In this document: positions 8,178 through 20,870 of the stretch, piece after piece
Layout: every line of letters starts with the position of its first letter
Position numbering within the stretch: the stretch's first letter is position 1
NCBI GenBank assembly: GCA_035701505.1
Contig: DASSSA010000133.1
Coordinates: 11,748 to 75,747 of the forward strand
DNA length: 64,000 bases
Reading direction: 5' to 3'
Source: Actinomycetota bacterium
GTDB taxonomy: Bacteria > Actinomycetota > UBA4738 > HRBIN12
Position numbers and translations under genes: made by a program
Notes under the pieces: model-generated
What the model was told of the DNA's origin: nothing
The model's input: the letters and a program-made list of their open reading frames with translations, nothing else
The model's database searches: none

Positions 8178-9635
8178 TCAGGACCCCGAGAGCTTGGCGC
8201 GGAGCAGCTCCCGCACGGTCCCCACGTTCGCCGCGCCGCCTGACTTCTTCATCACCTGACCGACCAGGAAGTTGATCGCCCCGTCCTTTCCGGCCCGGAA
8301 TTGCTCCACGGGGCCCGGGTTCTCGGCGATGGCCTCCACCACCCACGCCTCCAGCGCGGACGCGTCGGTGACCTGCCGCAGCCCCCGGGTCTCCACGATC
8401 TCCTCGACGGGATCGCCCGTCTCGAACGCTTCCTCCAGCACCCGCTTCGCCGCGGTGATCGAGATCGTGGCCTCCTCGACCAGGCGGATCAGATCCGCGA
8501 TGTGCTGGGGGGTAACCTTGCTCTGCGGCAGCTCGATCCGAGCCTTGTTCAGCAGGCCCGAGAGGTCCTGGGTCATCCAGTTGGCCACGGCCGCGGCGGG
8601 CGCCCCGAGGTCGACGGCCTCCTCAAGGAAATCCGCGGTGGCCTTCGACGCGCCGACCAGCGCGGCCTGCTTCGGAGCCAGCCCGAGCTCGCGTTCGAAC
8701 CGGGCCCGGCGCGCGGCGGGCAACTCGGGGAGCGAGCCGCGGATACGCTCGACCCACTCGGTATCGGGCTCGAGCGGGGGAAGGTCCGGCTCCGGGAAGT
8801 AGCGGTAATCGAACGCTTCCTCCTTGGATCGCAGGGTGTGGGTGGTGCCCTCCCCTTCGTCGAAGTGACGGGTCTCCTGAACCAACCGGTGGCCCGCGCG
8901 GAGCGCGGTGGCCTGCCGTTCCTGCTCGTACATCAGGGCTCGTTCGAGCGAGCGAACGGAGTTCAGGTTCTTGATCTCGACCTTCGTGCCGTACTCGAGG
9001 GAACCGGCCGGGCGGACCGAGATGTTCGCGTCGCATCGCAGCGAGCCCTCCTCCATCCGGACGTCGGACACATCGAGGGCCTCGAGCGTAGCCCGGAGCT
9101 CGTTGAGGTACGCGCGGGCCTCCTCGGGCGAGCGGATGTCCGGCTCGGAGACGACCTCGACGAGCGGCACGCCGGCCCGGTTGTAGTCGATGAGCGCGTA
9201 CTCGGCCTGTGCGATCCGCCCGGACGCTCCGGCGTGGGTCGTCTTGCCGGTGTCCTCCTCCATGTGCACCCGAGTGATGCCGACCCGATGGGTTTCCCCA
9301 TCGACCTGCACGTCGAGGTGTCCCTTGACACAGATCGGAAGGTCGTACTGGGAGATCTGGAAGTTCTTCGGCATGTCCGGGTAGAAGTAGTTTTTCCTGT
9401 GGAACAGCGAGTACCGGGCGATCTCGCAGTCCAGCGCAAGGCCGATCCGCACGATGTACTCGATGGCCTGCTCGTTCGGCACCGGCAGCGAGCCGGGAAG
9501 CCCCAGACATACGGGGCAGACGTTGGTGTTCGGGGGGGCGCCGAACTCGTTGGGGGAGCCGCAGAACATCTTCGTCCGCGTCGACAGCTCGACGTGACAC
9601 TCAAGGCCGATGACGGTCTCGAAGTCCTCGCCCAT
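8178..9635 (-). CDS. gatB: Asp-tRNA(Asn)/Glu-tRNA(Gln) amidotransferase subunit B
   Basis: 485 aa. N-terminus MGEDFETVIGLECHVELSTRTKMFCGSP and the rest match GatB throughout. Confidence 0.95.
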   Translation of the reverse strand: MGEDFETVIGLECHVELSTRTKMFCGSPNEFGAPPNTNVCPVCLGLPGSLPVPNEQAIEYIVRIGLALDCEIARYSLFHRKNYFYPDMPKNFQISQYDLPICVKGHLDVQVDGETHRVGITRVHMEEDTGKTTHAGASGRIAQAEYALIDYNRAGVPLVEVVSEPDIRSPEEARAYLNELRATLEALDVSDVRMEEGSLRCDANISVRPAGSLEYGTKVEIKNLNSVRSLERALMYEQERQATALRAGHRLVQETRHFDEGEGTTHTLRSKEEAFDYRYFPEPDLPPLEPDTEWVERIRGSLPELPAARRARFERELGLAPKQAALVGASKATADFLEEAVDLGAPAAAVANWMTQDLSGLLNKARIELPQSKVTPQHIADLIRLVEEATISITAAKRVLEEAFETGDPVEEIVETRGLRQVTDASALEAWVVEAIAENPGPVEQFRAGKDGAINFLVGQVMKKSGGAANVGTVRELLRAKLSGS

Positions 9636-9677: not shown

Positions 9678-10745
9678 ATGACCCGGACGGGAGGGCCACC
9701 GACCGCCCGGGCCAACCCTCCGTTGGTGTGGGTGGCGCTGGGCGCCGTCTACATCGTGTGGGGAACGACGTACTTCGCCATCCGCATCGTCAACGAGACG
9801 ATGCCCCCGCTCCTCTCAGCATCCATCAGGTTCCTAGTGGCGGGAACGGTGATGTTCGCCTGGACCATCCGACGGGGGAACAGGGATGGCGACCGGCCCG
9901 GCCCTCGCCAGTGGCGCGCGGCGGCCATCGTCGGGTGCGCGCTGCTCCTCGGCGGGAACGGCGGGGTCGTGTGGGCCGAGCGAACGGTTCCCTCCGGCAT
10001 CGTGGCCCTGATCATCGCCCTCGTCCCACTGTGGATGGCGCTCGTCGACCGGGTGCTGCTGAAGCACCGGCTCGGCGTACCGACGCTCGTCGGGCTGACC
10101 ACGGGGTTCGCGGGGGCGGCGCTCCTCGTGGGGAGCTCGGCGAGCGGCGGAGGGGTTGACCTCGACGGGATGCTGTTCGCCCTGGGGGCCTCGCTCAGCT
10201 GGGCGTCGGGGTCGCTGTACTCGCGCCATGCGCCGCTCCCCAAGCGGCCGTTCGTCGGCGTGGGGATGGAGATGCTGTGCGGCGGCGTCGCGTTCGGAGT
10301 CGTGGCGATGCTGGCCGGCGAGCTCGGCGAGATCCACCCCGAGCGGTTCTCGACGGCGTCGCTGCTCGCCCTGGGGTACCTCATCGTGTTCGGTTCGTTC
10401 GCCGGCCTCGGGTCCTACCTGTGGCTGCTGCGCAACGCCCGCACGTCGCTGGTCTCGACCTACGCCTATGTGAACCCGGTGGTCGCCGTGTTCCTGGGGT
10501 GGGCGTTCCTATCGGAGTCCATCGGCGTACGGACCGTGGTGGCCGGCCTCATCGTCCTGGGATCGGTCGCGTTGATCATCGCGTCGGGCGAGGCCACACC
10601 CGCCCCGGAGGCGGCCTCAGGCGGGGAGCTCACCAAGGAGGGGCGGGCGGGCGTCGAAGGCGAGCTCGCGCTCGAGGGCGTGGGCCACCCGGAGCAGGAG
10701 GGACTCCCCAAGGACCGGCGCCGTGACCTGGAGCCCGACGGGTAG
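9678..10745 (+). CDS. EamA/DMT-family transporter (10-TM drug/metabolite exporter)
   Basis: Two EamA-like repeats (WGTTYFAIRI... and ASLSWASGSLYSR...). ATG at 9678. The track fuses it to upstream junk as 8301..10745. The C-terminal 129 nt overlap the 3' end of gatA on the opposite strand. Confidence 0.8.
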   Translation: MTRTGGPPTARANPPLVWVALGAVYIVWGTTYFAIRIVNETMPPLLSASIRFLVAGTVMFAWTIRRGNRDGDRPGPRQWRAAAIVGCALLLGGNGGVVWAERTVPSGIVALIIALVPLWMALVDRVLLKHRLGVPTLVGLTTGFAGAALLVGSSASGGGVDLDGMLFALGASLSWASGSLYSRHAPLPKRPFVGVGMEMLCGGVAFGVVAMLAGELGEIHPERFSTASLLALGYLIVFGSFAGLGSYLWLLRNARTSLVSTYAYVNPVVAVFLGWAFLSESIGVRTVVAGLIVLGSVALIIASGEATPAPEAASGGELTKEGRAGVEGELALEGVGHPEQEGLPKDRRRDLEPDG

Positions 10746-12089
10746 GCCCACCTGGTCCAGGCCGGATGGGATGGAGATGCCAGGCACTCCCGCCAGGTTG
10801 GCCGGGATGGTGAACACATCGGAGAGGTACATCGCGAGGGGATCGTCCGCCCGCTCCCCGATCCGAAAGGCGGTGGTGGGCGAGGTCGGCGACACCAGCA
10901 CGTCGAACGACTCGAAGGCCTTCTCGTAGTCCTGGATGATCAACGTGCGGACCTTCTGGGCCTGCCCGTAATAGGCCTCGTAGTAGCCGGCAGACAGCGC
11001 GTACGTGCCGAGCATGATGCGGCGCTTGACCTCCGGGCCGAAGCCGGCGCCGCGGGTCCTTGCCATCATCTCGATCGAGTCCTCGCCGGGAACCCGCAGG
11101 CCGTACCGGACCCCGTCGTACCGGGCCAGGTTCGAGGAGGCCTCGGACGGGGCGATCAGGTAATACGCGGACAGCGCGTAGTCGGCGTGCGGCAGCGACG
11201 CCTCCCCGATCGATGCCCCGATGTCCGACAGCCGGTCCAGGGCGGACCCGACGCTCGACCGGACGCCCGGTTGCACGCCTTCGCCGAACGCCTCCTTGAC
11301 CACGCCGACCCGGAGCCCGCTCACGCCCTCGTCCAGGCCCTGGGTGTAGTCGTCAATGGTCCGGTCCAGGCTGGTGGCATCCAGCGGGTCACGGCCGGCG
11401 ACGGCCGACAGCAGGATCGCCGCGTCCCGCACGCTACGGGTGAACGTCCCGACCGTGTCGAGTGACGAGGCGAAGGCGATGAGGCCGTACCGGGAGATGA
11501 GCCCGTACGTCGGCTTCAGCCCCACCACCCCGCACAGCGACGCGGGTTGGCGCACGGAGCCTCCGGTGTCGGTGCCCAGAGCCCACACCGCCTCTCCCGC
11601 GGCTACCGCGGCCGCCGACCCGCCCGACGATCCCCCGGGCACGGTGTCAAGGTCCCACGGGTTGTGCACCGGGCCGAACGCGGAGTTCTCGTTCGACGAG
11701 CCCATGGCGAACTCGTCGCAGTTGGTCTTCCCTACGAGCACCGAATCCCCCGCAGCCAGCCGGGCCCAGGGCGTGCAGTCGAACGGGGGCACGTAGCTCT
11801 CGAGGATCCTCGATCCGCACGTCGTGGCGATGTCCTTCGTGGACAGGACGTCCTTCAAGGCGATCGGGATGCCGGCGGCGGAGGACGCGTCGCCCGCGGC
11901 GATGCGCGCGTCCGCCCCCGCCGCGCGCTCCCGCGCGAGCTCCGGCGTCCGCGCGAGGAACGCGCCGACCCGCCCATCCACGGCCTCCATCCGGGCGAGG
12001 CACGACTCCGTGACCTCCGCGCTCGAGGTCTCGCCAGCCCGGAACTTCGCGGCCAGGTCGGCCGCAGTGAGGTCGCAGAACTCGGCCAC
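10617..12089 (-). CDS. gatA: Glutamyl-tRNA(Gln) amidotransferase subunit A (amidase signature family)
   Basis: Amidase signature GGSSGGSAAAVAAG. I place the start at the GTG at 12087-12089, with GGAGG 5-8 nt upstream and 1 nt after the gatC stop. The track ORF (10617..12263) extends further into junk. Confidence 0.95.
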   Translation of the reverse strand: MAEFCDLTAADLAAKFRAGETSSAEVTESCLARMEAVDGRVGAFLARTPELARERAAGADARIAAGDASSAAGIPIALKDVLSTKDIATTCGSRILESYVPPFDCTPWARLAAGDSVLVGKTNCDEFAMGSSNENSAFGPVHNPWDLDTVPGGSSGGSAAAVAAGEAVWALGTDTGGSVRQPASLCGVVGLKPTYGLISRYGLIAFASSLDTVGTFTRSVRDAAILLSAVAGRDPLDATSLDRTIDDYTQGLDEGVSGLRVGVVKEAFGEGVQPGVRSSVGSALDRLSDIGASIGEASLPHADYALSAYYLIAPSEASSNLARYDGVRYGLRVPGEDSIEMMARTRGAGFGPEVKRRIMLGTYALSAGYYEAYYGQAQKVRTLIIQDYEKAFESFDVLVSPTSPTTAFRIGERADDPLAMYLSDVFTIPANLAGVPGISIPSGLDQVGLPVGLQVTAPVLGESLLLRVAHALERELAFDARPPLLGELPA

Positions 12090-12090
12090 C

Positions 12091-12381
12091 TCAGCCGACC
12101 TCCGCGATCGGTGGGACCTTGAACCGGTCGCCCTCCCGCTCGGGCGCGTTGGCCAGCGCCTCCTCGCGAGAGAGCGAGGGCACCGGCTCGTCGGGCCGCA
12201 GCACGTTCGCCCGTGGGATTGCGTACGCGGTCGGTGGCACGTCGGCCGCTGCCACCTCGCCAACCTTCGCCGCGCTCTCCAGGATCAACCCGAGCTGCGC
12301 CTTCAGCCGCTCCTTCTCCTCGGCGTTGAGGTCGAGACGGGCCAACTTGGCCACGTGGTCGATGTCGATCTCGACGGGCAT
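12091..12381 (-). CDS. gatC: Asp/Glu-tRNA amidotransferase subunit C
   Basis: 96 aa, MPVEIDIDHVAKLARLDLNAEEKERL..., typical GatC. The gatC-gatA-gatB order is conserved. Confidence 0.9.
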   Translation of the reverse strand: MPVEIDIDHVAKLARLDLNAEEKERLKAQLGLILESAAKVGEVAAADVPPTAYAIPRANVLRPDEPVPSLSREEALANAPEREGDRFKVPPIAEVG

Positions 12382-12392
12382 GGCCCGCCAGT

Positions 12393-13865
12393 CTAGTTGG
12401 GACTGTGCGTGTCCACGTAGCCGGGCGGCGGGGTCTCGCCGGGAGCCGGCTCATGGACCAACCCGGGGCCCTCGTCCGGCGGGATCGGCACATCGAGTCG
12501 GCCCGATGCCAGCAGGGAGAGCATGTCGACCCCCATCTCCACCGGATCGATCGTCCGGACAACCGACCATCGGAAGGCACCGTCGGACACCTTCTCCGAC
12601 AGGTCGATCTCCGTGGCCTCTGCGGCGTTGCCCTCAGCGTCGAGGACCAACCGGATCGTGGGACGCCCCAGCGCGCGCTCATGGTTCCGCACGACCACGC
12701 CGACCTCCCCGGTCGAGAGCTGGACCAGCGACCCGACCGGGAATAACCCCACGAGCCGGACGAACGTTCGGACCACGCGAGGGTCGAACGAGCGGCCCGC
12801 CCCAGTCTGCAGGATGGCCAGGGCCTGGCGCCGCTCCTCTGGCTTTCGATAGGAGCGCTTGCTGGTGATCGCGTCGAAGCAGTCGGCCACGGAAACGATT
12901 CGCGACGGGAGGGAGGCCACGCGACGACCGGAGAGCGAGGGATAGCCCGACCCGTCGAACGCGGCGTGGTGCTCCAGCACGACGGACATGGCCGGGTGGA
13001 GGGGATCGCGGGTGGTGACGGCGACGAGCCCGGCCCCGTCCACCGGATGACGCTGGATCAGCCGCCACTGCTCCTCGTTCAGCAACCCGTCGTGCTGGAG
13101 GACCTCCCTGGGGACCTTCACCTTCCCCACGTCGTGCAGCAGGCCGCCGATCCCGAGCGCGATCGATTGCTCGTGGGACAGGCCGATGGCCCTGGCCAGG
13201 GCCAGCGACAGGATGCAGACATTCACCATGTGGTGGTACGTGTATTCGTCGTAGGACTTCACCGTGGTGAGCAGCAGCGCCTGGGCGGGGTCATCGGAGA
13301 TCAGCTCCGCCAGGTGCTCGGTGAGGCGCACGGTCGCGTCCAGGTCCGCGGGCCGCCCCGCCAGCAGCCGAGCCGCCGTCTGGCGCAAGAGCTCCAGCCC
13401 GGCTGCGTAGCTCTGGAGGAGCTCGGACATGCCGGACACGTCCGCATCGGGAACGACCGGGGTGGCCCGGTTCACCCCGATCCATGCCAGCTCCTTCTCG
13501 GCGCCCTTCTCCCCCATCAGCAACCTGAGGAGGGCGTCGGCATCGGACTGGGTCACGCCGGGGCGGAACTCGAGTGAGCGGACGCCTGCCTCGGCCATCG
13601 ACTGGGCCAGACGGTTCAGCGTGAGCGACTCCCACGCGAGGAGGGTCGCGCCCATGTAGAAGTTGCCGTCCGACACGAACAGGACCACGGGCCGACCCCG
13701 CGCGTCGCACAGCCCACCGATCTGTCCGGTGAGATCCGCGGTGGTCTCCATCCGCTTGGGATGCTCGCCCGGGTACAAGGCGTAGACCTGTCGAGCCGCC
13801 GAAAGCGTCCGAAGGAACTCGCGGGCCCTGACGATCTCGATCTCCGATGTGGGCACGCTCATCAC
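12393..13865 (-). CDS. HD-GYP domain phosphohydrolase (putative c-di-GMP phosphodiesterase) with about 200-aa N-terminal domain of unknown function and about 100-aa C-terminal extension
   Basis: HD motif (HHMVNV...HDVGK) and GYP motif (HHAAFDGSGYP) read directly from the translation. The ATG overlaps the stop of the upstream HEAT-repeat gene (ATGA, 13862-13865). Confidence 0.85.
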   Translation of the reverse strand: MMSVPTSEIEIVRAREFLRTLSAARQVYALYPGEHPKRMETTADLTGQIGGLCDARGRPVVLFVSDGNFYMGATLLAWESLTLNRLAQSMAEAGVRSLEFRPGVTQSDADALLRLLMGEKGAEKELAWIGVNRATPVVPDADVSGMSELLQSYAAGLELLRQTAARLLAGRPADLDATVRLTEHLAELISDDPAQALLLTTVKSYDEYTYHHMVNVCILSLALARAIGLSHEQSIALGIGGLLHDVGKVKVPREVLQHDGLLNEEQWRLIQRHPVDGAGLVAVTTRDPLHPAMSVVLEHHAAFDGSGYPSLSGRRVASLPSRIVSVADCFDAITSKRSYRKPEERRQALAILQTGAGRSFDPRVVRTFVRLVGLFPVGSLVQLSTGEVGVVVRNHERALGRPTIRLVLDAEGNAAEATEIDLSEKVSDGAFRWSVVRTIDPVEMGVDMLSLLASGRLDVPIPPDEGPGLVHEPAPGETPPPGYVDTHSPN

Positions 13866-15826
13866 CCGGCTCCCCTCGCGTCACGGAGGAGCCGGCGGGC
13901 ATACCGGCGGAGCTTCCATGGCAGCCTGGGTCGGGTATCGCCCTCTGAGAGGAGGCGGAGTACCTCCCGCCCCTCGCCTCCCTCGGCCAGCTCGTCGAGG
14001 GCCTGCCGGCGAAGGCCCCGATCGGTGCTGGACCGAGCGATGTCTCCAAGGGCTGCCGCGGCCTCTGGGGCGAAGATGGCCCCAAGCACGGACACGGCGG
14101 TGGGCCGAACATCCTGGAGGCCTTCCGCTGCCAGCGTCCGGAGGTGGGGCACGGCCTTGACGCCACCCGCCACGACGAGAGCCTTCACCGCCTCCTTTCG
14201 AACCTGGGCCGACGGATGGCGAGCCGCCCAGACCAGCTGGTCCAGCACCTCCTCACCTCCGGCGTTGCCCAGCAGGTTCGCGGCGTTCCTCACTACGTAC
14301 CACCGGGGATCCTCCAGCCGCGCCACCACCGGCCTCAGGTGCCCCCGCGCGACCTGGCGAAGCGCAGCCAGTAGATGGGCGCGCCGTTCCCGATCCGCCT
14401 CGGCGAGCAGGTCCAGGAGCACCTCCACCCCGAGATCGCCGAAGGGTTCCAACACTTCGGGGACCGTGGCACCACCGTCTTCGGCGCGCGCCGTGTCCAT
14501 GATCGCCAACACCGCCTCAGGCGCCAGGGCCTGTCTGACGTACGCGGCGTACAGGGATTGCCGTTCGTCGCCTGCTCCCCCCAGGGCCGCCCGAACCGGT
14601 TCCAGGAGCTCGCGGACGCGAACGGGATCCCGCATCGCCATGGCTGACTGGAGCCCTTGGGCCCACATGGACAGCACCTCGCCGAGCCGCTCGTCGTCAT
14701 GCTCGAGGGTCACGTAGTCGTGGAGCGCCAGCAGCGCCGATGTCTGCCGCTGCTCGTCCGTTCGGGGAAGGGTGGCTTGCATCGTTCGCACGTCGTCGCG
14801 TTCGGTCGCGGTCAGGTAGCCGGCGAGCGCATCCGTCACCGAGCCCTCGGGACCAACCGTCTCGGGCTCCGCGAGGTCCACCCCGAGCGCCTCCAGGCCC
14901 GCCAAGATCGTGCCGGCCTCTTCCCGTCCGGCCTCGAGCGCCTCGGTCAGGTCGACAAGGTCCAGGTGCCGGACGCCGGCGGCTGCGAGATGGGTGGCCA
15001 GCTCCACGGGATCCCGTCGGCCATCCCGGCCCAGGTCGACGAGCGCCCGGGTGAGCTCGGCGTTGCTCATCGTGCCGATGAACCGCTCAGCCAGGGGGTC
15101 TTCGCGGACCCGATCCACCAGCAGCTCGACGAGCGAGCGGCGGAGCTCCGCTGGGAGCTCCGTGACGACGTCGTGCACCGTCGCGTGCAGGTCGATCTCC
15201 CGTCCCGCCTCGATCGACAGGTCCGAGACCAGGCCCCTCAGGCGTCCGAACAGGGCTTCGGCCTGGGTCTCCGGCCCGCCGGCGAGGTCGTCGATCCGAA
15301 GCTGTGAGGCGAGCACGTGGGCATCCGGCACGCGAGCGGGGTTGGCCACCACGTCCTCGGCCTCGTGGTCGGCTCCCTCGACGGCGGAGGGTCCCAGGGC
15401 AGAGAGCACGATCGACCCGACGCCCGCAGAGGCAAGCATCTCCTCCGCACCGCCCTGTTCCCTGAGATCCTCGGAAGGCATCGACAGCACGGCGAAGGCC
15501 CGTTCGAGGTCACGAACGTCAGGCACGGTGCCGATGGCCACCCGCTCCACGCGACGTTCGAAGCACGCGCGGGCCAGCCGCTCGGTCGACTCGATGGGGG
15601 GCAGGGGCGTGCCCTCGAGCACGAAGCCCTCGCTTCGAACCTCCACGTCGATCGGCCCGGCTGCGAGAGCCGAGCGGACCGACTCGTCGATCCGCTCCAC
15701 CGCCGCCGCGAAGCCGGGGCGATTCAAGCTCCCTGGGAACAACCGGTACGCGGCCAGACCGAGCCAGAGCTGCCGCAGCAGCTCCGCGACTTCGCGGGCG
15801 CGATCATCCCCCTCGCTCACGACCAC
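13862..15826 (-). CDS. HEAT-repeat (PBS-lyase-like) protein of 654 aa. The N-terminal roughly 110 aa are paralogous to the N-terminus of the downstream HD-GYP protein.
   Basis: C-terminal tandem repeats of the form (VRxxAxxALGxxGxxxAvxxL). My pairwise reading against the HD-GYP N-terminus finds shared motifs Y-x-L-[YF]-P-G, G-P-[VI]-x-[LV]-x-V-[SR]-x-G-[NF]-[FV] and RLA...V...D...LL. The stop overlaps the HD-GYP start. Confidence 0.75.
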   Translation of the reverse strand: MVVSEGDDRAREVAELLRQLWLGLAAYRLFPGSLNRPGFAAAVERIDESVRSALAAGPIDVEVRSEGFVLEGTPLPPIESTERLARACFERRVERVAIGTVPDVRDLERAFAVLSMPSEDLREQGGAEEMLASAGVGSIVLSALGPSAVEGADHEAEDVVANPARVPDAHVLASQLRIDDLAGGPETQAEALFGRLRGLVSDLSIEAGREIDLHATVHDVVTELPAELRRSLVELLVDRVREDPLAERFIGTMSNAELTRALVDLGRDGRRDPVELATHLAAAGVRHLDLVDLTEALEAGREEAGTILAGLEALGVDLAEPETVGPEGSVTDALAGYLTATERDDVRTMQATLPRTDEQRQTSALLALHDYVTLEHDDERLGEVLSMWAQGLQSAMAMRDPVRVRELLEPVRAALGGAGDERQSLYAAYVRQALAPEAVLAIMDTARAEDGGATVPEVLEPFGDLGVEVLLDLLAEADRERRAHLLAALRQVARGHLRPVVARLEDPRWYVVRNAANLLGNAGGEEVLDQLVWAARHPSAQVRKEAVKALVVAGGVKAVPHLRTLAAEGLQDVRPTAVSVLGAIFAPEAAAALGDIARSSTDRGLRRQALDELAEGGEGREVLRLLSEGDTRPRLPWKLRRYARRLLRDARGAG

Positions 15827-15966
15827 CTCGATCGGATCCCAACCCCCTCCCGCGGGGTTATCGACAGGCGGCCGGCTCGGCCTAAGCCGAGGGACCCCAT
15901 GACGGAGCCCGGGGCGGCCACCCCCGTCGGGAGGACGGTGGAGTCGCTTGCGTCACGAGCCTCGGG

Positions 15967-16890
15967 CTACCGGAAGATGCCGAAGCGCGGCTCGACCCGT
16001 TGAGCCATCGCGGCGGCCATAAGCGCGTTCCCCACCAGCCAGACGTCGGTGATCGGGCCGACCCCGCCGGGGACGGGCGTGATGGCCTCGGCCCTGGCCG
16101 CGACGCTCTCGAAGTCCAGATCGCCGACCATCCGGGTCTTGCCCGTGGCCGGGTCCTCCACCGCGTGAATGCCGACATCCACTGCGATCACACCGTCCCG
16201 GACCATGTCGCCGGTCACGAGGGCTCGCACCCCCGCCGCGACGATCAGGATGTCGGCCAGGCACGTGAACTCGCTGAGCTTGCCGGCCGCGTGCGTGCGG
16301 CTGTGGCAGGCGACCACGGTGGCGTCGCGCTGAAGCCCGAGCCACTGCGCCGGCTTGCCAACGCTGTTCGAGCGGCCGACCACCACGATGGTCTTGCCCG
16401 AGTAGAACGTGGCGGGATCTCGGCCTGTCGATCCGAGGTAGGCGTCCAGCAGGTAGTAGCAGGAGGCCGGAGTGGACGGGAGGAACCGCGGGCGCCCCTG
16501 GGCCAGCAGACCGGTGTTCTGCGGGTGCACTGCCTCGATGTCCTTCAGCGGATCGATCGCGCTGTTGATCTCGGCCTCGGGGATGTGCGACGGGAGCGGA
16601 TGCAGAACCAGGATCCCGGTGATCCTTGGATCGGCGTTCAGCTTGCCGATCGTCGCCACCACATCCGCGAGCTCGACGTCGGCGGGCAGGCTCTCGGTCA
16701 CGTACCGGTATTCGAGCGCCTCGCACAGCCGCCGCACATGACGCTCGTACGCCTGGGCGGCGAAGTCCTCGCCCACCAGCACCGTGGCCAGGCCGGGCCG
16801 CACTTCGGACAGCCGAAGGACCTTGAGCTCGTCCTCGATCGAGTGCCGCAGGTGGTCCGCGACCGCGTTCCCATCGATTACGTGGGCCAC
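15967..16890 (-). CDS. folD: Bifunctional methylenetetrahydrofolate dehydrogenase/cyclohydrolase
   Basis: 307 aa. FolD-like throughout, with NAD(P) site GRSNSVGKP. Confidence 0.95.
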   Translation of the reverse strand: MAHVIDGNAVADHLRHSIEDELKVLRLSEVRPGLATVLVGEDFAAQAYERHVRRLCEALEYRYVTESLPADVELADVVATIGKLNADPRITGILVLHPLPSHIPEAEINSAIDPLKDIEAVHPQNTGLLAQGRPRFLPSTPASCYYLLDAYLGSTGRDPATFYSGKTIVVVGRSNSVGKPAQWLGLQRDATVVACHSRTHAAGKLSEFTCLADILIVAAGVRALVTGDMVRDGVIAVDVGIHAVEDPATGKTRMVGDLDFESVAARAEAITPVPGGVGPITDVWLVGNALMAAAMAQRVEPRFGIFR

Positions 16891-16914
16891 GTCATCCCTC
16901 CTCGATGGTCGAGG

Positions 16915-19624
<2,710 letters not shown>

Positions 19625-19713
19625 GCGGTGCCCTCCGTGGGCCCGTCCGGGACCCGAAGGCCGATGATAACGAGCCCCGCCGCCGGGAATCCGGCGGCGG
19701 GGCTCCACAGTGC

Positions 19714-20793
19714 CTACCGCAAGGACTCGATGGTCCTGGCGCCGCCGAGGAGCTCGTCGCCCCGGTACACCACGACGCTCTGACCCGGCGCCACGCCGCG
19801 CTGCGGCGTGCGGAACTCCACACGCACCCGGCCATCGATCGCCTCGACGACGGCGGGGACGTCCTCGCCGTTGTAGCGGATCCTGACCTCGGCCTCGAAT
19901 GGGCCGGCGGCGGGCGGCTCGCCGCCCACCCACGAGACCCGGTCGGCCACGAGCCCCCGTCGCATCAGCAGATCGCCCGGGCCCACGACCACGCGGTTCG
20001 CGCGAGCGTCGACCTCCACGACGTACGACCGTTCGCCCGTGGACACGCCGATGCCGCGACGCTGTCCGACGGTGAACCGGAACGACCCTCGATGGCGACC
20101 GATCACGTTGCCATCAGGATCGACAACCTCACCCGGGCGAACCATGCCGGGCGCGTGCTCCTCGATGAAGGCGGCGTGATCCGCTCCGGGGACGAAGCAG
20201 ATCTCCTGCGAGTCTGGCTTGGCCGCGACCGGAAGGCCGAAGCGCTCGGCGAGGGCGCGGGTTTCGGCCTTGGCCATGCCGCCGACGGGGAAGCGAGCCC
20301 TGGCCAGCTCGCGCTGGCCCAGGGTGTGGAGCATGTAGGACTGGTCCTTGCCGTCATCGGCGCCGCGAAGGAGATGCCATCGCCCCGCTGGATCTCGATC
20401 GGTTCGGACGTAATGCCCGGTGGCCACGAGGTCGACGCCCAGGCGATCTGCCCGCTCGAGGAACGCACCGAACTTGATGTGCTCGTTGCACCGCGCGCAT
20501 GGGTTCGGCGTCCGGCCGGCCTCGTGCTCCTCGAAGAAGTCCGCCAGGACCGTCTCAGCGAACGACGCCGACATGTCGACGACCTCGAAGGCGAACCCGC
20601 CGATGCGGGCCACGGCCTCCGCGTCGGCGCGGGCGCTCGGGCCGCAGCAGCCATGGTCCACGCCGTCGGCCAGGTGCACCATGTTCATGTGGGAGCCGAG
20701 CACCTCGTAGCCCTGTTCGACGAGCAGACAGGCCGAGACAGAGGAGTCGACCCCGCCCGACATCGCGACCAGCACGGAACCCTTCGAGCCCAT
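19714..20793 (-). CDS. mnmA: tRNA-specific 2-thiouridylase
   Basis: PP-loop SGGVDSS, a catalytic Cys pair and the MnmA C-terminal domain. Start taken at MGSKGSVLVAMSGGVDSS (ATG 20791-20793). Confidence 0.9.
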   Translation of the reverse strand: MGSKGSVLVAMSGGVDSSVSACLLVEQGYEVLGSHMNMVHLADGVDHGCCGPSARADAEAVARIGGFAFEVVDMSASFAETVLADFFEEHEAGRTPNPCARCNEHIKFGAFLERADRLGVDLVATGHYVRTDRDPAGRWHLLRGADDGKDQSYMLHTLGQRELARARFPVGGMAKAETRALAERFGLPVAAKPDSQEICFVPGADHAAFIEEHAPGMVRPGEVVDPDGNVIGRHRGSFRFTVGQRRGIGVSTGERSYVVEVDARANRVVVGPGDLLMRRGLVADRVSWVGGEPPAAGPFEAEVRIRYNGEDVPAVVEAIDGRVRVEFRTPQRGVAPGQSVVVYRGDELLGGARTIESLR

Positions 20794-20870
20794 GGTGGTT
20801 GCGAGTCTACGACCGGCTAGTCCTGCCGCTCGGTATCCTGACGCACTGGCCAACCGATAGGGATCGAACC

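Follow-up and report, generated by a model that had tools for sequence, protein, structure and literature searches.

The question raised by this locus is what an HD-GYP phosphodiesterase gene and an overlapping gene for a HEAT-repeat protein do together, and whether the two products are headed by the same domain. Of the two c-di-GMP phosphodiesterase classes, HD-GYP proteins form the one that is less well understood, and to our knowledge the control of their activity beyond REC, GAF and DUF3391 sensors is largely undescribed. We analyzed the pair within the window, which is the whole 64-kb stretch of DNA, and compared it with related loci from metagenome-assembled genomes (MAGs) and metagenomes.

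The overlapping gene pair and its genomic setting

Both open reading frames were found on the minus strand where the initial annotation had placed them. The HEAT-repeat partner gene (13862..15826, 654 aa) was identified by its reading frame, by Pfam HEAT_2 and by orthologues in 27 MAG loci, and the HD-GYP phosphodiesterase gene (12393..13865, 490 aa, or 489 aa from ATG) by its reading frame and Pfam HD_5 (9e-27). The neighbours were also as described, with folD (15967-16890) and ligA upstream and gatC (12091-12381, assigned by Pfam) downstream. The HD-GYP stop is separated from the start of gatC by a spacer of 11 nt (12382..12392, minus strand), and the closest orthologues keep a spacing of about 11 nt. 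Because this spacer is so short, co-transcription of the pair with gatC-gatA is probable. No terminator-like sites were found in 10500-17000, which is weak evidence, and a promoter and terminator scan, uninformative for a high-G+C actinobacterium, found nothing. Rfam gave 0 matches in the whole window. No GGDEF or diguanylate cyclase gene was present within the 64 kb, a search whose scope excludes cyclases elsewhere in the genome.

At the stop/start junction (13860..13865, minus strand), the HEAT stop codon TGA (13864-13862) overlaps either a GTG start (13865-13863) by 4 nt or an ATG start (13862-13860, TGATG) by 1 nt, so the genes overlap with either HD-GYP start. The ATG corresponds to the start of the orthologues, which open with MSV. 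The 4-nt overlap noted earlier was thus found, but its bases (13865 to 13862, minus strand) read GTGA rather than ATGA. A Shine-Dalgarno-like GAGGGGAG (13870..13877, minus strand), read directly, falls inside the HEAT gene at its 3' end and precedes the HD-GYP start by 5-8 nt, and orthologous junctions carry purine-rich runs at the same position. Of the 22 MAG loci, 19-20 show the [AG]TGA 4-nt overlap, as do 43 of the 46 metagenome loci, low-G+C lineages among them. Overlaps of 4 nt are the commonest overlap class among bacteria, and coupling by itself is evidence of co-expression, not of binding.

The pair had been interpreted as an accessory insertion, which the comparative data contradict: G+C across the region is flat (0.69-0.72), and each of the 22 related Actinomycetota MAG loci that reach far enough has the pair between ligA(-folD) and gatC. 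The conservation of this slot, with HEAT identities of 46 to 93% across those loci, indicates that the pair is an old, fixed feature of the window's lineage. In metagenomes, searched with an 18-sequence HEAT alignment, a HEAT ORF with the N-terminal domain (N-domain) was followed by HD-GYP in 46/46 loci where 1200 nt or more of downstream sequence was available (HEAT proteins 28-96% identical to that of the window), whereas none of 13 loci with generic HEAT proteins that lack the N-domain had an HD-GYP gene. The neighbourhood comparison that the annotation had proposed thus came out in favour of co-conservation, and the HEAT and HD-GYP genes are an obligately linked overlapping pair. Coriobacteriales, Armatimonadota and unclassified contigs also have such pairs, in two cases duplicated in tandem, and the arrangement is found in two bacterial phyla or more. 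In these other lineages the module is located in unrelated gene contexts; one pair has genes for a PAS-GGDEF-EAL and a multi-PAS protein as its neighbours, and another (L030) adjoins alaS. Genes for GGDEF/EAL, PilZ-REC and MshEN proteins are the genomic associates of the family, and an Acidobacteriota HEAT-type protein (P0149) has no adjoining HD-GYP gene. Over deep time the module has moved, yet it is no strain-level accessory element.

The N-terminal domain common to both proteins

The N-domains span residues ~6-119 of the HEAT protein (15470..15811, minus strand; merged HMM 181 bits) and ~7-121 of the HD-GYP protein (13503..13847, minus strand). The proposal that they are the same domain was borne out by profiles, while pairwise comparison was not significant: BLASTP of the two proteins gave no N-terminal match, and Smith-Waterman of the N-termini gave z = 1.5 against shuffles. 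Profile-profile alignment by hhalign, using 23 HD and 27 HEAT N-termini, was significant (probability 90.2%, E 1.5e-6, score 43.1) over 111 collinear columns, with HD residues 7-121 aligned to HEAT residues 6-119. The motifs quoted earlier (Y-x-L-[YF]-P-G, RLA...) fall on conserved columns, with spacings that are approximate only.

The negative pairwise results, together with the Ala/Leu/Arg-rich composition of both proteins from a genome of ~70% G+C, would fit an account in which the likeness arose from composition or by chance and the two genes, with no particular tie to each other, were recently inserted as an accessory element. We consider this very improbable and refuted by several results. 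Against the score of 43.1, 150 column-shuffled controls, which retain composition, reached 13.2 +/- 2.4 with a maximum of 20.7. Class-specific HMMs found members of the opposite class, the HD-only model finding the HEAT-type protein P0125 (5.8e-10) and the HEAT-only model the HD-type proteins P0143 (1.7e-15) and P0122 (7e-12). For a distantly related group of low G+C, the N-domains of the two partners matched at 97% (E 8e-11), and the fixed synteny, flat G+C and metagenome linkage described above argue against insertion. These results show that the two N-domains are homologous and represent the same ~115-residue domain, which may be the product of an ancient duplication.

The annotation of the domain as one of unknown function agrees with our searches: neither Pfam nor NCBIfam has a model of it, and no relative with a solved structure was found; an NCBIfam NosR-family match covered the HD-GYP part only (86 bits against a cut-off of 400). 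The AF2 model, built from a 10-row alignment, was confident (pLDDT 90) and predicted an alpha/beta domain that opens with two long helices and continues with a strand/helix unit. Foldseek matches to GAF and dCache were non-significant (E >= 0.2, TM about 0.2). An N-terminus of the REC or GAF type was rejected on 0 Pfam matches and these GAF results, and DUF3391 (PF11871) on 0 matches even at E <= 10.

Word-indexed searches with the N-terminal halves and a 50-sequence profile returned few metagenomic fragments from the same lineage, and it was an exhaustive HMMER search that revealed a family of at least 1000 clusters at 50% identity. The top conserved positions shared by the HD and HEAT families include the polar R19, Y28, P32 and R38 in the helix1-helix2 turn, within a Y-x-L-Y-P-x-x-H-P-x-R motif. 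Other architectures were observed: P0139 consists of N-domain, linker, N-domain and HD domain, and proteins of ~300 aa consist of two N-domains in tandem. At three loci, these tandem proteins are located immediately upstream of ATPases carrying MshEN, a c-di-GMP receptor domain (PMC5013675), and T2SSE. In the AF2 model of a natural tandem protein each copy was folded (pLDDT 81), the linker (146-163) was disordered and the relative placement was not confident (pTM 0.50).

Catalytic residues of the HD-GYP protein and repeats of its partner

The HD-GYP catalytic domain covers residues ~201-372 (12750..13265, minus strand) based on the PmGH alignment, and Pfam HD_5 matched residues 207-364 (9e-27, 94.3 bits against a cut-off of 27.2). 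Its relatives in the PDB are PmGH (4mcw, 1.1e-25), PA4781 (4r8z, 8.9e-23) and V-cGAP3 (5z7c, 1e-21). The motifs HHMVNV, HDVGK and HHAAFDGSGYP are all present in the translation, the key residues being D206, H212, H244, D245, K248, H273, H299, H300, G307-Y308-P309, D328, D331 and R337. At a constant offset of 23 residues, the seven metal ligands H212, H244-D245, H273, H299-H300 and D328 correspond to H189, H221-D222, H250, H276-H277 and D305 of PmGH (ligand list from PMC4159591); they are kept in 28-29 of 29 family members, and the equivalents of PmGH D183 and K225, the catalytic Asp and Lys, and of D308 and R314 are also present. The E298-HHAAFDGSGYP-309 signature, with G307, Y308 and P309 invariant (29/29), matches the published HHExxDGxGYP signature with its GYP loop (bioRxiv 10.1101/2021.11.05.467447). 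Degeneracy of the motif, which the annotation had named as a check, was not found: the named ligand and motif residues, K248 and R337 being outside this count, are conserved in 26-29/29 members. This conservation speaks against a catalytically dead HD domain, and the protein is apparently catalytically competent.

The position of PmGH E185 is occupied by Y208, preceded by E207, which is Glu in 28/29 members. Since Tyr or Phe at this position defines the Y/F subfamily (PMC4159591), the sequence places the protein in this seven-ligand subfamily. The trinuclear eight-ligand E/D-T-G subfamily (PmGH, TM0186) was rejected, as the carboxylate that characterizes it is absent there. The C-terminal extension (residues ~373-490; 12396..12749, minus strand) reads in translation as a beta-rich segment and a Pro-rich tail, for which Pfam gave a sub-threshold KOWx match only.

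The HEAT protein is ordered as N-domain, helical middle region and C-terminal HEAT_2 repeats, and it contains tandem HEAT-like helical hairpins of ~30 residues. The HEAT_2/PBS-lyase-like array (residues ~465-640; 13907..14434, minus strand) was delimited by Pfam, which matched HEAT_2 in three stretches within residues ~499-640 (2.7e-20, 72.9 bits against a cut-off of 27.7), and by alphaRep/HEAT structures in the PDB, which matched residues ~465-602 at up to 1.4e-18. The earlier description as PBS-lyase-type repeats holds for the HEAT_2 repeats, and HEAT_PBS stayed below the Pfam threshold. A phycobilin lyase of the CpcE/F or NblB type was rejected (17.6 and 16 bits against NCBIfam equivalog cut-offs of 330 and 300), as was an anti-phage defence system, for which PADLOC gave marginal matches of 13-17 bits only, to generic HD/HEAT parts of Cas3b and HEAT_CxxC_PD-DEXK.

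A putative two-subunit phosphodiesterase, its rivals and known systems

The pair suggests an undescribed two-subunit signalling enzyme, and the account that best fits these sequences is a putative heteromeric phosphodiesterase complex. We assign a probability of about 0.5 to the reading that the HEAT protein and the seven-ligand HD-GYP protein form a two-subunit c-di-GMP phosphodiesterase with coupled translation, N-domain pairing and a regulatory or targeting HEAT subunit. The non-catalytic HEAT protein would be translated first and the HD-GYP protein by coupling from the overlapping start; the N-domains would most likely pair as a pseudo-homodimer that tethers one HEAT to one phosphodiesterase subunit, and the HEAT solenoid would gate the active site or dock the enzyme onto a client. 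We infer the heterodimerization, the c-di-GMP substrate and the regulatory role of the HEAT protein. A heteromeric complex is supported by the conserved coupling and by the natural tandem and fused N-domain proteins, and the c-di-GMP connection by the tandem proteins adjoining MshEN ATPases and by the pair flanked by PAS-GGDEF-EAL. The near-universal linkage, the shared N-domain and the intact catalytic residues also favour this reading. The unpaired Acidobacteriota protein P0149, the low-confidence placement in the tandem AF2 model and the lack of a GGDEF gene in the 64 kb count against it, as does the equally close relationship of the enzyme to V-cGAP3, which acts on cGAMP. A broader and less probable proposal is that the N-domain is a new-fold pairing module that defines a new class of obligate two-subunit c-di-GMP phosphodiesterases, plugs in its tandem form into MshE-type secretion or pilus ATPases, and acts as a general, hitherto overlooked c-di-GMP adaptor in Actinomycetota, Armatimonadota and possibly Acidobacteriota.

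Each protein could also use its N-domain on its own, for homodimerization or for binding a ligand. In one such account, which we consider unlikely though deserving of weight, it would be a sensor that binds a nucleotide or c-di-GMP in each protein separately, the HEAT protein being an effector or adaptor and the HD-GYP protein the degrader of the signal, with no stable N-domain heterodimer. N-terminal sensors (GAF, REC, DUF3391) are usual for HD-GYP proteins (bioRxiv 10.1101/2021.11.05.467447), the most conserved positions shared by the HD and HEAT families include polar residues of the helix1-helix2 turn, the ATPases next to the tandem N-domains bind c-di-GMP, and AF2 did not pack the two copies together. 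However, Foldseek gave no fold similarity to known ligand-binding domains, and the near-universal presence of exactly two copies, in coupled genes, tandem or fused, fits a pairing module better; the roles are mutually compatible. It is less probable still that the enzyme is an HD-GYP-fold hydrolase of another substrate (3'3'-cGAMP, pGpG or another nucleotide) in a different signalling or nucleotide-turnover pathway. The cGAMP phosphodiesterase V-cGAP3 scores almost like the c-di-GMP enzymes (1e-21 vs 1e-25), the window lacks a cyclase gene, and the apparent co-transcription with gatCA and the alaS neighbour of L030 would suit such a pathway, whereas the c-di-GMP-recognition residues of PmGH (GYP and the R314 and K317 equivalents) are kept and the gene associates of the family point to c-di-GMP.

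Under the preferred reading of a two-subunit c-di-GMP phosphodiesterase, a coupled HEAT partner with the same N-domain suggests a holoenzyme in which regulation or targeting falls to a subunit of its own; no such arrangement has been described for HD-GYP proteins. The N-domain beside MshEN ATPases is a second, independent tie to c-di-GMP signalling. The family is directly testable, being large, with an uncatalogued N-domain, a nearly always coupled HEAT partner and the MshEN association, and it offers functional access to signalling in lineages that are little studied and mostly uncultured.

Literature on HD-GYP with HEAT, armadillo or PBS lyase yielded no relevant paper, and together with the membership comparisons this upholds the initial view that no described system matches the pair. 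RpfG-type HD-GYP proteins of Xanthomonas form complexes with non-catalytic GGDEF and PilZ proteins, which is alike in concept, but those partners are, as far as is known, unrelated in sequence, not translationally coupled and have no domain in common with the enzyme. The Bd1817 family (DUF3391-HD-GYP) similarly has a cytoplasmic N-terminal domain of ~120 residues and a long helix leading to HD-GYP, and its DUF3391, without assigned function, was proposed to promote dimerization (bioRxiv 10.1101/2021.11.05.467447); DUF3391, however, has four strands and then two long helices, the reverse of the helices-first N-domain, and no partner gene with the same domain is described. CpcE/NblB and the alphaRep designs share the HEAT_2 repeat type with the C-terminal ~170 residues of the partner but have no counterpart of its N-domain and ~330-residue middle region, and the locus lacks the phycobilisome context of CpcE/NblB. 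PmGH, the Persephonella marina GAF-HD-GYP protein, is the best solved relative and matches the window protein in 7/8 metal ligands, but its sensor is a GAF domain and its E185 is the eighth ligand of a trinuclear iron centre; at that position the window protein has Tyr, with a conserved Glu one residue earlier, and it has no GAF. PA4781 of P. aeruginosa, compared here along with the Tyr/Phe seven-ligand subfamily, has a homologous catalytic domain, with the HD, HH and GYP motifs also in the window protein, and is controlled by a REC domain at the N-terminus of its own chain, whereas the window protein has an uncatalogued N-terminus and an overlapping-gene HEAT partner that carries the same domain.

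The HEAT-HD-GYP pair and its surroundings

The HEAT ORF (13862-15826, 654 aa) and the HD-GYP ORF (12393-13865, 490 aa) are located on the minus strand downstream of mnmA (19714-20853), a conserved hypothetical gene (18959-19933, 324 aa), ligA (16915-18939) and folD (15967-16890, with a 140-nt gap before the HEAT ORF), and upstream of gatC (12091-12381), gatA (10617-~12088) and gatB (8178-9635), all on the same strand. The only Pfam match in the HEAT protein was to HEAT_2 repeats near the C-terminus (2.7e-20), and the HD-GYP protein matched HD_5 (9e-27, residues 207-364), with no Pfam match N-terminal of it. Because only 11 nt (12382-12392) separate the HD-GYP stop from the gatC start, the pair probably shares a transcript with the genes of the Glu/Asp-tRNA amidotransferase. 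On another actinobacterial contig (L030, 8028-12270), only 61 nt separate the same pair from a downstream alaS gene; that it was placed twice, independently, beside tRNA-charging genes is odd, but may be a coincidence. No ORF with a GGDEF motif was present within the 64-kb window, and an Rfam search of both its strands gave no family at the gathering threshold and no tRNA, rRNA or riboswitch models.

Two neighbouring genes were also noted. An EamA-family transporter gene (~9680-10745, plus strand; Pfam 1.1e-36) is located between gatA and gatB, antisense to both, with its 3' end overlapping that of gatA by ~130 nt, and this arrangement is kept in most related MAG loci. The 324-aa ORF between mnmA and ligA, conserved in related MAGs, matched no Pfam family and only PRK04334-type 'hypothetical protein' models of NCBIfam (4e-36, below the cut-off). 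Its N-terminal ~100 residues, as called, overlap the mnmA 3' end, so translation probably begins at a more downstream position.

A scan of species-representative genomes, using patterns from the HEAT middle region that recovered only the window's own lineage, returned 27 loci, all from uncultured Actinomycetota MAGs (HEAT identity 46-93%). In all 22 loci with a long enough contig, HEAT was followed by HD-GYP, and the pair was flanked on one side by ligA, alone or together with folD, and on the other by gatC. The co-conservation of the two genes in related genomes was thus borne out, while the proposal of the initial annotation that they are an accessory insertion is unsupported for this lineage, given the fixed slot and a flat G+C content (0.69-0.72 over the whole stretch). 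The gene order of Mycobacterium tuberculosis, which we take to be ligA, an ACT-domain gene (Rv3013) and gatC-gatA-pfkA-gatB, suggests that the ligA-gatCAB neighbourhood is ancestral in Actinomycetota; in the lineage studied here, the module occupies the position between ligA and gatCAB.

The minus-strand junction reads ...GAGGGGAGCCGGGTGATGAGC..., in which the HEAT stop TGA (13864-13862) overlaps a GTG (13865-13863) by 4 nt. The overlap described earlier is therefore present, although in this genome it reads GTGA and not ATGA, which is the common form in relatives. An alternative ATG start (13862-13860) overlaps the HEAT stop by 1 nt; orthologues start at ATG, and their HD-GYP proteins begin MSV. 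By automatic ORF calling, the 4-nt [AG]TGA overlap was found in 19/22 lineage loci, or 20 when the frameshifted L012 is read through, and the exceptions were a frameshifted assembly (L021) and a locus with a 22-nt gap (L011). At the latter (L011:11925-11990), two copies of GTGAGCGTCATCGCG are present, one at the HEAT stop and one at the HD-GYP start, and the gap replaces the overlap, as might result from a short duplication that uncoupled both genes.

Distant members showed the same order and 4-nt overlap in unrelated surroundings. The neighbours are Lon and a PilZ-REC gene on L028, while the pair is flanked by a PAS-GGDEF-EAL gene and a multi-PAS gene on the contig of P0086 and by a DUF948 gene and alaS on L030; further cases are L031 and Coriobacteriales MAGs (L036 and L037). 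Two tandem pairs, arranged HEAT-HD-HEAT-HD, were found at L034:1673-8770, where every junction overlaps by 1-4 nt, and in an Armatimonadota MAG (L121:1-6410), where the two genes of the downstream pair share 4 nt and gaps of 34-66 nt are present at the remaining junctions; duplication of the entire module has thus taken place in at least two lineages, including Armatimonadota. The only orphan among the neighbourhood look-ups was an Acidobacteriota HEAT-type protein of 785 aa (P0149, L029:6001-8358), which has no adjacent HD-GYP gene and is followed by a convergent M28 peptidase gene.

A metagenome scan returned 80 loci, some of which duplicate the MAG lineages, so that the following counts are not all independent. 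Wherever a HEAT ORF with the N-terminal domain had at least 1200 nt downstream, the next gene was HD-GYP (46/46), and the junction was exactly a 4-nt overlap in 43 cases, whereas the genes were spaced by 1 nt or overlapped by 11 nt in the remaining three. These loci cover 28-96% identity to the window protein and include high-G+C as well as low-G+C sequences. Four loci with the N-terminal domain and without HD-GYP were all cut by contig ends. The 13 loci matched through generic HEAT repeats alone, which served as a built-in negative control, had neither the N-terminal domain nor HD-GYP.

The N-terminal domain

The domain said to head both proteins, here sized at ~115 residues, escaped pairwise comparison: BLASTP gave no alignment in the N-termini, and the best Smith-Waterman score was only 1.5 SD above shuffles. 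Profiles of the orthologous N-termini (27 HEAT and 23 HD-GYP) nevertheless matched significantly in hhalign over 111 collinear columns (HD-GYP 7-121, HEAT 6-119; 90.2%, E 1.5e-6, score 43.1). A compositional explanation was ruled out, since the reversed HEAT alignment scored 13.7 and column-shuffled ones 13.2 ± 2.4, with a maximum of 20.7 in 150 trials. Identity across the two families is 21-25%, and columns conserved in both include L18, R19, Y28, L30, P32, R38, L76, L86, A87 and L116 (HD-GYP numbering), among which are the Y-x-L-[YF]-P and RLA motifs already read from the translations. Each family also detected the other at a distance: an HMM of HD-GYP N-termini alone found HEAT-type proteins of distant lineages (e.g., P0125, 5.8e-10), and one of HEAT N-termini alone found distant HD-GYP proteins (P0143, 1.7e-15; P0122, 7e-12). 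Among pairs from a separate group of low G+C, the partner N-termini match mutually (97%, E 8e-11). By these sequence comparisons, the common domain is real and ancient.

No Pfam family matched the domain, either in the proteins of the window pair (E up to 1) or in 50 isolated copies (E up to 10), and no NCBIfam model matched it. When 1.84 billion cluster representatives were searched exhaustively with HMMER, at least 1000 proteins matched at E <= 1e-3, 126 of them at <= 1e-10; these were mostly HEAT-type proteins of 580-690 aa, with ~10 HD-GYP proteins in the top 150, an excess probably explained by the query, a merged 10-sequence profile with HEAT rows in the majority. AlphaFold2 gave a confident model from a 10-row alignment (pLDDT 90.2, pTM 0.85), with two long helices (8-30 and 36-56), a beta-hairpin (60-65, 68-71), a helix (81-92), a strand (97-100), a helix (106-116) and a final strand. 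Identity with DUF3391 was rejected, as that family was undetected and the Bd1817 N-terminal domain has the opposite layout, with four strands before two helices.

A predicted catalytic partner and two copies of one domain

The closest solved relatives of the HD-GYP protein are PmGH of Persephonella marina (4mcw, 1.1e-25), PA4781 of P. aeruginosa (4r8z) and the cGAMP phosphodiesterase V-cGAP3 (5z7c). At a constant offset of 23 from PmGH (residue list from PMC4159591), it keeps the metal ligands H212, H244, D245, H273, H299, H300 and D328 (PmGH H189, H221, D222, H250, H276, H277 and D305), the catalytic pair D206 and K248 (D183 and K225), the GYP motif G307-Y308-P309 (G284-Y285-P286), the conserved D331 (D308) and the substrate-binding R337 (R314). 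The counted residues, which leave out K248 and R337, are kept in 26-29 of 29 family members. Tyr208 occupies the position of the third-metal ligand E185, with a conserved Glu one residue upstream, which places the enzyme in the described Y/F seven-ligand subfamily (PMC4159591). The domain is thus not degenerate, and the enzyme is predicted to be active.

The best-supported reading of these sequences is a putative two-subunit phosphodiesterase, in which translational coupling would supply the HEAT protein and the HD-GYP enzyme in a fixed ratio, the paralogous N-terminal domains would join them, and the HEAT solenoid would act as a regulatory or targeting subunit. The main alternative is that the domain is a sensor used independently by each protein; sensing and a two-subunit enzyme can coexist. 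The domain repeatedly comes as two copies per functional unit, whether divided between coupled genes, arranged in tandem or fused, a pattern that would be expected if the module pairs with itself. Tandem copies make up family proteins of ~300 aa (P0087, P0088, P0081, P0099 and P0094). AlphaFold2 gave both copies of P0087 the same topology (pLDDT 81), with a disordered linker and uncertain relative placement (pTM 0.50). The fusion P0139 (719 aa, L033:1351-3510) contains copies at 3-133 and 355-465, separated by a linker of ~220 residues and followed by an HD domain with seemingly degenerate motifs (HDIGM and no clear GYP). This protein may represent the two-gene module in single-chain form.

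Comparison with known systems

The domain has a second conserved context, as the neighbour of a known c-di-GMP receptor ATPase: tandem genes are located directly upstream of an MshEN-T2SSE ATPase gene at L032:462-3036, L039:2797-8080 and L040:866-6149. A Wzy_C gene follows in 3/3 loci, and L039 and L040 also have a T2SSF gene. MshEN domains are receptors that bind c-di-GMP with high affinity (PMC5013675). A prepilin peptidase gene was also observed near the L039 locus. A literature search on HD-GYP proteins with HEAT-type partners found nothing relevant, and Galperin and Chou, in their census of HD-GYP architectures, list REC, GAF, DUF3391, DUF3369 and membrane sensors, but neither this N-terminal domain nor a HEAT partner. 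The HD-GYP enzyme class is already known; what is new is the uncatalogued N-terminal domain and a dedicated HEAT partner that is near-universally coupled to the enzyme.
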